Positions 2,723 to 3,455 of a DNA stretch of 22,035 nucleotides are shown here, piece by piece (the stretch's first letter is position 1; each line of letters opens with the position of its first letter). This DNA is from a virus. A program made the translations under genes and the position numbers. The notes under the pieces are model-generated. The model worked only from the letters and a program-made list of their open reading frames with translations. It did not search any database and was not told the origin of the DNA. Location of the stretch: UHGV virus genome UHGV-0200595; one strand, written 5' to 3'.

Positions 2723-3154
2723 TCATTGCTTCAGTTCATGGCGGGCAGCTTCAGCGATGAAGTGACTGCGGTCGCGATAAACGTTGCTGGCCTTTACTGC
2801 ATTATCGATCCGCTTAATCAGCGTATCAGGTAATGAGATGTTTATGCGCTGAGGCTTGCCTTCGAATTCTGACAAATCAACGTCGACCATAACCCAGCTG
2901 TCGAAGTCTTTATATTCTGGATTAACGGAATAAACCAGATAGCCAGCATCCTTGATATCTTCGACAGCAACATCGTTATTCTGAACCAGGTCTTCGACAA
3001 CCATCAGGATAGCTTCTTTCACCATTGGGGCAATCTGGTCCTGAGTATCAGCAGCGGAGAAACATCCGTAATCGTAAGCTGAAAACGCGGGAACGATCAT
3101 ACCGTAGGCGGTCTTTTCATCTTTCGGCGTCTCGACGCCCACTGAGAAGAACAT
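2723..3154 (-). CDS. hicB: HicB-family antitoxin (N-terminal HicB fold plus C-terminal ribbon-helix-helix DNA-binding domain)
   Basis: 143 aa. The N-terminal region YGMIVPAFSAYDYGCFSAADTQDQIAPMVKEAI is HicB-like. The C-terminal region RINISLPDTLIKRIDNAVKA...RSHFIAEAARHEL is RHH-like. SD GGAGG 5 nt before the ATG. It lies 17 nt downstream of hicA on the same strand. Confidence 0.8.
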   Translation of the reverse strand: MFFSVGVETPKDEKTAYGMIVPAFSAYDYGCFSAADTQDQIAPMVKEAILMVVEDLVQNNDVAVEDIKDAGYLVYSVNPEYKDFDSWVMVDVDLSEFEGKPQRINISLPDTLIKRIDNAVKASNVYRDRSHFIAEAARHELKQ

Positions 3155-3178
3155 ATCAACCTCCAGAGAGGGCGGGGA

Positions 3179-3361
3179 TTAGAACCCCGCCAGTTTTTTA
3201 ATGGATTTGACAGTGCCGAGAGGTAAGTCCTTTTTTGGATGCGGAACCGGAAAAGTTTTTCCGGTTATCGGTGACCACCATATCTGGTGGCTTCCTCCGT
3301 TATGCCTTTTGAGTTCACATCCGGCAGCAGTCAATTCCTTTATCAGGTCAGTAGATTTCAT
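3179..3361 (-). CDS. hicA: HicA-family mRNA interferase toxin
   Basis: 60 aa, MKSTDLIKELTAAGCELKRHNGGSHQIWWSPITGKTFPVPHPKKDLPLGTVKSIKKLAGF, a typical HicA (GSH...HP...VPxHPxKDLxxGTxxSIxKxAG). Perfect SD AGGAGG 4 nt upstream. The track ORF (to 3397) has a 12-aa N-terminal extension that I reject. Confidence 0.85.
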   Translation of the reverse strand: MKSTDLIKELTAAGCELKRHNGGSHQIWWSPITGKTFPVPHPKKDLPLGTVKSIKKLAGF

Positions 3362-3383
3362 GTTTCCTCCTGGCCTGAAAACT

Positions 3384-3435
3384 ATTATACACACCAATAC
3401 ACACGAAGCAATATTTTGTGTGTATTCGTGTGTAA
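3384..3435 (-). promoter_or_regulatory. hicAB promoter with embedded palindromic operator
   Basis: On the minus strand, -10 TATAAT is perfect (+ coordinates 3384-3389) and -35 is TTGCTT (3406-3411) with a 16-bp spacer. These are overlapped by four copies of ATACACAC, two direct at 3388-3404 and two inverted at 3418-3435. This includes a perfect 10-bp inverted repeat TACACACGAA (3398-3407) / TTCGTGTGTA (3425-3434). Confidence 0.65.
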
Positions 3436-3455
3436 ATTTGATGGGGTGTTATTAA

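Follow-up and report, generated by a model that had tools for sequence, protein, structure and literature searches.

The 22,035-nucleotide stretch of the virus genome UHGV-0200595 analysed here (the window, meaning the whole of that stretch) carries on its minus strand a hicAB toxin-antitoxin (TA) pair, placed between a gene for a Q-like late antitermination protein and the genes for lysis. Comparisons with other phages and plasmids indicate that the region is a self-contained moron, a small autonomous mobile unit, of approximately 770 bp in the Q-to-lysis slot of a lambdoid prophage, and that the cassette belongs to the HicA^T B subfamily and not to the HicA^O B type, in which the ORFs overlap. 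Within the operon, a GC-rich hairpin straddling the hicA stop codon is homologous to an internal terminator demonstrated on a plasmid, and hairpins at the same position have also been detected in distant phage hicAB loci. The explanation which is considered fairly likely is that of a selfish, autonomous HicA^T B moron, inverted within its slot for independence from the late operon. What the analysis itself shows comprises the protein families, the anatomy of the operon, the conservation and covariation of the hairpin, the insertion boundaries and the pattern of orientation.

The hicAB cassette and its boundaries

The original prediction had described a complete pair made up of a HicA toxin and a HicB antitoxin with a ribbon-helix-helix (RHH) domain, and both open reading frames (ORFs) and their Pfam domains have been confirmed at the positions then given. 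The toxin gene hicA (3179-3361, minus strand) encodes a protein of 60 aa matching HicA_toxin (PF07927) with an E-value of 2.6e-17, and hicB (2723-3154, minus strand) encodes 143 aa, with an N-terminal HicB_lk_antitox domain (PF15919, E 2.4e-28) followed by a C-terminal RHH_1 domain at residues 103-143. Among solved structures in the PDB, the nearest are those of the Burkholderia pseudomallei pair, HicA matching 4c26 at E 1.4e-9 (4c26/6g26, E about 1e-9) and HicB matching 6g1n at E 6.9e-12, with Yersinia HicA3B3 coming next. The HicA motif G23-S24-H25, read from the sequence, is kept; in a phmmer alignment it lies one residue off the B. pseudomallei H24A chain, and the two may be catalytically equivalent. 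The genes form a bicistronic unit on the same strand in the order hicA (3361-3179) and hicB (3154-2723), separated by a spacer of 24 bp (3155-3178), and each is preceded by a Shine-Dalgarno (SD) site GGAGG, read from the sequence and conserved in homologues (3366-3370 for hicA and 3160-3164 for hicB, both on the minus strand). These features indicate an intact and ordinary type II HicAB system. Two plus-strand ORFs lying antisense to hicA (3201-3455 and 3287-3889) were dismissed as artefacts mirroring the conserved hicA frame, and have no independent support.

A promoter belonging to the pair and a position as minus-strand cargo between Q and the holin, which had also been proposed, are borne out by a promoter that can be read upstream of hicA and by the flanking genes. 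This promoter (3384-3411, minus strand) comprises the -35 box TTGCTT (3411-3406), a 16-nt spacer and the -10 box TATAAT (3389-3384), the latter being perfect and the former agreeing with the consensus at only three of six positions. A consensus promoter scan picked up neither this promoter, because of its poor -35 box, nor the candidate late promoter pR' described below, and both were placed by sequence reading together with conservation. With the exception of the -35 hexamer, which varies, eight aligned homologues differ very little in the promoter-proximal block up to and including the -10 box, and the motif GTGTGTATnnGTGTGTATAAT of this block occurs exactly in 18 loci. An operator-like palindrome (3388-3434), revealed by a repeat finder (repeats I1, D1 and D2), lies on both sides of the -35 box and extends into the -10 box. 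It consists of two 20-nt arms (3388-3407 and 3415-3434), each formed by two 10-bp TACACAC units, four in total. The proximal arm is invariant in the eight homologues, and the distal arm is present in three of the eight, being absent in Escherichia coli E7-1N7, Phytobacter and the plasmids. The TACACAC repeats are presumed to be binding sites for the RHH domain of HicB, serving autorepression. An Rfam match to mir-3149 at a permissive threshold is simply this palindrome and is not credible. After the hicB stop codon, a hairpin with a 7-bp GC stem and a U/C-rich tail (2694-2713, minus strand) probably terminates the hicAB transcript; the z-score of its fold is only -0.9, and it is shared by the E. 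coli E7-1N7 cassette, in which one pair is U.G on the minus-strand RNA and C-A on the plus strand.

The limits of the cassette are defined by comparison with phage phiP27, whose homology to the window covers the terminator tR' and a methylase gene up to approximately 2660 and resumes at approximately 3437-3445, before a plus-strand hairpin (3457-3472) and the holin gene. The insert of approximately 770 bp stands where phiP27 has a tRNA-stx2eAB-L27 segment. In E. coli E7-1N7, a copy with 90.6% identity to window positions 2692-3416 is found in the same orientation, flanked by a different Q gene and a class II holin. This genome gave the only megablast match to the cassette among 5426 complete E. 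coli genomes, none of the annotated phages searched by megablast carries it, and exact-protein look-ups returned only three metagenome contigs, all from the same phage. Close relatives occur in a Citrobacter prophage, an Intestinirhabdus contig and a non-phage chromosomal site in Phytobacter. Since it is found in such varied contexts, the cassette behaves as a moron, for which its own promoter (3384-3411), its terminal hairpin (2694-2713), the junctions relative to phiP27 and the other flanks in E7-1N7 also speak. Elsewhere the same slot holds stx2e (phiP27), a ribosome-inactivating protein (RIP) toxin (locus L023 of the survey) or an LT-like toxin (L003).

The internal hairpin at the hicA stop codon

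The cassette shares about 74% nucleotide identity with the hicAB operon of IncI2 plasmids (85% for HicA and 63% for HicB at the protein level), 688 plasmids giving a match. In the IncI2 mcr-1 plasmid p45 (pHNSHP45), hicA likewise comes first, the spacer measures 24 bp and both genes have a GGAGG site (Lin et al., 2025, Nucleic Acids Res, PMC11878559). Just before the hicB ribosome-binding site (RBS), this operon has a GC hairpin followed by UUU, which has been described as a "noncanonical intrinsic terminator" that results in approximately ten-fold more hicA than hicB mRNA, also lowers HicB translation and is required for plasmid-plasmid competition (PMC11878559). Of the features that mark the HicA^T B subfamily, the window has the separated ORFs, the 24-bp spacer and the GC hairpin immediately preceding the hicB RBS.

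The window homologue of this terminator is the hairpin GGCGGGG-N7-CCCCGCC (3171-3191, minus strand), the loop of which contains the hicA stop codon (3179-3181). It had been suggested to span both the hicA stop codon and the hicB SD region; the first part stands and the second does not, given that the hairpin ends 6 nt before GGAGG (3160-3164). The further suggestion that it tunes the toxin:antitoxin ratio is accepted, because its arms are identical to those of the experimentally studied plasmid homologue; it is right by homology and, having been shown for the IncI2 system (PMC11878559), is not new.

Taken by itself, the window hairpin is statistically ordinary (-16.8 kcal/mol for the sense RNA, z -1.6, 10 of 200 shuffles), and it is conservation and covariation that speak for it. 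The motif is found unchanged in 19 loci of the cassette's subfamily; variants comprise a G.U pair at L014, a mismatch at L015 and multiple changes in the frameshifted copies L023 and L024. Five distant phage hicAB loci, those of Pasteurella Pmp4, Moraxella Mcat19, Pseudomonas aeruginosa phi3, Citrobacter phiNP and Acinetobacter R3177, form hairpins in the corresponding position across the hicA stop codon, but with other sequences; the z-scores are between -3.0 and -4.3 for four of these loci and -1.1 for Citrobacter phiNP. The 5' arm corresponds to the Ala-Gly codons of a conserved HicA C-terminus (...K-x-A-G-(L/I)), and the non-coding 3' arm follows the synonymous third positions of these codons. 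In a hand-made alignment of the arms (A7), which has 12 rows only, with a fixed linker for the loops and one bulged U removed, and which was fitted to the predicted folds, 88.9% of the cells are paired, four pairs show two-sided changes (11 such cells) and the covariation score reaches 0.35 against 0.15 in shuffles (none of 500 attaining it), the paired cells dropping to 33-59% when the register is slid. These patterns indicate that a hairpin straddling the hicA stop codon is much broader in its distribution than the IncI2 plasmid subfamily.

All five G.U cells of the alignment have their G in the 5' arm and can form only in the sense RNA, an indication that the hairpin acts on the hicAB mRNA. 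For this reason, an antisense or bidirectional role was rejected as the primary function for which the hairpin has been selected.

A separate observation concerns the plus strand, where positions 3171-3200 read as a hairpin followed by U6 and look like a canonical intrinsic terminator for antisense transcription. The U6 tract results from two HicA lysine codons, AAA-AAA, and this Lys pair is encoded in the same manner in seven of eight aligned homologues.

Orientation and the surrounding late region

In two genomic prophages and in 13 of the 14 IMG/VR loci, the hicAB genes of the subfamily run against the phage genes on either side. Both flanks were checked where the contig allowed; direct examination did not take in L013 or L025, the latter being grouped with L019 solely on the basis of the same identity, E-value and motif positions. 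The identifiable flanks are late genes (Q, holin, endolysin and Rz), occurring in about ten combinations. Neighbours on the hicB side include Q proteins of PF06530 and of PF06323, a full-length or truncated methylase, the RIP toxin, the LT-like toxin and, at L019 and L020, an unclassified protein of 212 aa in the Q position (no Pfam match), and those on the hicA side comprise three kinds of holin and a glycosyltransferase of 499 aa. Three Pfam-distinct Q proteins (PF06530, PF06323 and DUF1133) have been found at hicAB loci, together with an unclassified one in E. coli E7-1N7. Among the distant loci, hicAB runs opposite to the neighbouring late genes in Pmp4 and Mcat19, converges with late genes downstream in phiNP, HP1 and phi3, and is co-oriented with tail genes in Acinetobacter R3177. 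The bias towards antisense orientation is real; the individual cases may not be independent, because mosaic phages may share descent.

Late transcription in the window can be followed from the Q-like gene (1505-2047, plus strand), which matches DUF1133 (E 8.4e-102) and Phage_antitermQ (E 5e-08) in Pfam, has a nucleotide identity of approximately 78% with E. coli phage genes annotated as "antitermination protein Q" and is preceded on the plus strand by genes of the DUF1367 and YbcO families. A -35 box TTGACT (2044-2049, plus strand) overlaps the Q stop codon and is followed by a weak -10 box, TCAAAT/CAAATT (2067-2073). Considering this box together with the conservation of the Q module among other phages, which extends exactly to a terminator end at 2157, the late promoter pR' most likely lies at approximately 2044-2073. 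The corresponding tR'-like intrinsic terminator (2132-2157, plus strand, with its hairpin at 2132-2151) was found by a terminator scan and folds at -15.2 kcal/mol (z -3.0, 0 of 200 shuffles), giving a predicted pR'-to-tR' leader RNA of about 75-80 nt. An isrK-like Rfam match (2081-2155, plus strand) coincides exactly with this leader, scoring 17.5 bits (E 0.64) where the gathering score is 50. IsrK is a small RNA of the Gifsy-1 prophage, and the likeness may only reflect that both are Q-region leader RNAs; at a permissive threshold, Rfam gave nothing credible in the window region.

Next comes a DNA methylase remnant (2154-2660, plus strand), of which only the C-terminal part is left (positions 121-210 of 221 in the Pfam profile N6_N4_Mtase). 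Its region measures 510 bp compared with about 1.49 kb in phiP27 and Stx2c phages, about 1 kb having been lost, and, compared with phiP27, its 3' end shows a gap of 12 bp and a premature stop. At L015, the methylase adjoining hicAB is of full length (350 aa). The remnant is backbone DNA outside the cassette. On the far side of hicAB, the terminator scan found a hairpin with a T5 tract (3457-3477, plus strand, hairpin at 3457-3472) about 20 nt before the holin SD. It is conserved upstream of the phiP27 holin, its fold alone not being significant, and appears to be a backbone feature that would silence the holin without Q antitermination. The first late lysis gene, of the Phage_holin_8 family (3497-3889, plus strand; E 5.2e-23), is about 85% identical in nucleotides to the phiP27 holin gene and is followed by a second holin (3873-4157, plus strand) and, further downstream on the same strand, a GH108 endolysin, both recognised by Pfam.

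Between hicA and the holin, the consensus scan detected no plus-strand promoter. Considering also the terminator at 3457-3472, holin expression would have to come from antiterminated transcription crossing hicAB antisense. The earlier claim that late transcripts traverse the pair is supported by this layout, according to which they almost certainly do so. Their path would include three plus-strand terminator-like sites, at 2132, at 3171 (a perfect stem with U6) and at 3457, in addition to the entire hicAB operon.

It has to be considered whether the antisense placement has itself been selected and not simply inherited, either because Q-driven late transcription acts as an off-switch for the TA pair or because a sense placement would be lethal through a flood of HicA. 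This is considered unlikely. If it were true, transcriptional interference would tie the expression state of the TA pair to the choice between lysis and lysogeny, the flood of HicA would come from read-through at the internal terminator, and the plus-strand form of the hairpin (7-bp GC stem and U6) would constitute a third Q-dependent barrier before the holin.

Additional genes have been noted in this region and at related loci. In the window, an ORF of 60 aa after the endolysin (4701-4883, plus strand) has a lipobox-like motif, LLVGC, and no Pfam match, and may encode a small lipoprotein of the spanin type; around the window lysis genes, no distinct Rz-like ORF was seen. Genes for ParB_N (291 aa) and TAGT-family (283-290 aa) proteins (5056-6775, plus strand) lie between the lysis cassette and the terminase. 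At L023 and L024, a RIP of 304 aa (5673-6587, minus strand; Pfam RIP, E 2e-18) with the Stx-A-like motif EALRFRQIQR adjoins a decayed hicAB with a frameshifted hicB and a mutated hairpin, and a duplicated holin fragment and a secreted protein of 146 aa lie upstream. In Citrobacter meridianamericanus (L003), a pertussis-S1/LT-A-like ADP-ribosyltransferase of 300 aa (6607-7509, minus strand) occupies the Q-to-lysis slot beside hicAB, accompanied by an LT-IIB-like B subunit of 126 aa (7909-8289, minus strand), the gene order apparently being B before A. At L014, a protein of 294 aa with a weak Ion_trans_2 C-terminus (5682-6566, plus strand) is encoded between hicAB and Q in the same orientation as hicAB, and may be another cargo gene expressed in the lysogen. 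A Hok/Gef type I toxin gene has been found in the early/nin region both on L005, a scaffold of the same phage (9183-9335, immediately before the window begins), and on L001, the E7-1N7 prophage (2678-2830), which means that these phages carry two toxin-antitoxin-type modules.

Function of the cassette and comparison with known systems

According to the selfish-moron explanation, host sigma-70 RNA polymerase would transcribe hicAB leftwards from its own promoter in the lysogen, and the RHH domain of HicB would repress that promoter at the TACACAC repeats. The GC hairpin on the hicAB mRNA would serve as a partial terminator and a translation brake, as shown in the plasmid homologue, and partial termination would lead to more hicA than hicB message. 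Toxicity, neutralisation, the hairpin effect and HicB stability have been established in homologues: the p45 HicA is bacteriostatic and is neutralised by a HicB that is stable for hours (PMC11878559). By analogy, the window HicA would be a bacteriostatic toxin held in check by stable HicB, probably acting as an mRNA interferase like other toxins of its family. In physiological terms, the selfish role is the most likely one, cells or competitors that lose or replace the cassette being penalised so that the prophage persists, much as the system gives IncI2 plasmids an advantage in plasmid-plasmid competition. The backward orientation would provide insulation, keeping the pair on in the lysogen and free from co-expression with the late genes in lytic growth. 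During such growth, we infer that Q-modified polymerase reads antisense across the three plus-strand terminator-like sites as far as the holin, a passage that would probably damp hicAB by collision, with no need for a dedicated switch.

Several points weigh against this explanation. The tail of the window hairpin is CUCUCU, with three U that are not contiguous, compared with GACUUU in IncI2, and its stem measures 7 bp with a 7-nt loop compared with 9 bp and a 3-nt loop in relatives. The stem is shorter because the final HicA codon is TTC (Phe) in the window and ATC (Ile) in the relatives. Owing to the altered tail and the shorter stem, termination in the window copy may be weaker or absent. 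The placement of pR' is tentative, and the uniform orientation may stem partly from shared descent and not from selection. The role in stabilisation or competition is extrapolated from a plasmid, and the only prophage HicAB tested, that of Pseudomonas putida prophage P1, a distant relative, had no effect on prophage stability (PMC12894663).

The original prediction had raised the possibility of a purpose-built switch, in which, upon induction, Q-driven transcription silences hicAB through antisense RNA and interference and thereby toggles between prophage maintenance and a toxic state resembling abortive infection. The layout does force late transcripts through the cassette, and an antisense orientation that is invariant over about ten flank combinations, with three Pfam-distinct Q proteins and an unclassified one, is compatible with selection. 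A switch of this kind is nonetheless regarded as distinctly improbable. In the close homologue HicB remains stable for hours (PMC11878559), so that a shut-off of transcription should not quickly free HicA, and the phage would itself suffer from an mRNA interferase set free in late growth. Independent phage cargo is, moreover, commonly found in opposite orientation, as in HP1 orf14 and the Moraxella, Pasteurella and Pseudomonas loci, making insulation the simpler account, and the two relevant experimental systems displayed no phage defence, to which is added the lack of a PADLOC model match.

According to another proposal, the cassette gives the host an anti-phage defence, by superinfection exclusion or abortive infection, triggered by infecting phages. 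Phage-encoded HicAB has been singled out as worth testing by the authors of the plasmid study (PMC11878559), but deletion of hicAB from p45 left resistance to lytic coliphages unchanged (PMC11878559), HicAB2 of the P. putida prophage gave no defence (PMC12894663), and neither HicA nor HicB matches a PADLOC model, with no family found for either at E <= 0.01. Defence is likewise regarded as distinctly improbable. A neutral or decaying hitchhiker without current function, spread by recombination in a mosaic hot spot, would agree with the varied cargo of the slot (stx2e, RIP and LT-like toxins), with the neighbouring methylase being a deletion remnant and with the frameshifted hicB and mutated hairpin of L023 and L024, but is the least probable of these proposals, given that the ORFs, SD sites, -10 box, operator-like repeats and hairpin of the window are all intact and that most of the divergent copies (76-97% HicB identity) retain open reading frames.

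Several elements of the selfish-moron explanation were already known, including phage-borne hicAB in lambda-like late operons and elsewhere, functional prophage HicAB and the internal terminator (PMC4553209, PMC12894663, PMC11878559). New, in an incremental manner, are the precise delimitation of a HicA^T B cassette in the stx slot, its uniformly antisense orientation under unrelated Q proteins and the extension of the hairpin, with covariation, to distant phage hicAB loci. Taken together, the findings show that the plasmid HicA^T B addiction and competition module also travels as phage cargo, in a hot spot for Shiga and LT-like toxins. As the cassette lies beside toxin genes in some relatives, it could help toxin-converting prophages persist. 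The importance of these findings is modest, with no new mechanism opened.

When compared to IncI2 HicA^T B, the cassette has the same gene order, spacer, GGAGG sites, GGCGGGG...CCCCGCC arms and GTGTGTATnnGTGTGTATAAT block, as well as a HicB combining PF15919 and RHH domains. It differs in lying in the late region of a lambdoid prophage, whereas the plasmid copy is on a conjugative plasmid, in the tail and stem of the hairpin described above, and in an extra distal operator arm which makes up a 20-nt palindrome. The HicAB system of B. pseudomallei (4c26, 6g26 and 6g1n) and HicA3B3 of Yersinia pestis (4p78) comprise the same two families with an RHH-type HicB (E 1e-9 to 7e-12), but these systems are chromosomal and of low sequence identity, and an internal hairpin is not reported for them in the literature examined. 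In phages, hicAB has been described within the late operons of lambda-like Mannheimia haemolytica phages (PMC4553209), and HicAB2 of P. putida prophage P1 has been shown to be functional, affecting neither prophage stability nor phage defence (PMC12894663). Together with orf14 of Haemophilus HP1, which has its own P31/T31, these hicAB or hicB units resemble the window cassette in being separately transcribed, usually opposite to their neighbours, and in or beside late genes; unlike the cassette, they are located in tail genes or at genome ends, and their HicB identity is 33-47%. The stx genes of phiP27 and other Stx phages and LT-II of SerU-LTIIb share with the cassette the slot between tR'/methylase and holin. 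However, stx is co-oriented with late transcription and Q-dependent, whereas hicAB is inverted and driven by its own promoter. There is a precedent in lambda bor, which is likewise expressed in the lysogen and lies antisense in a late operon.

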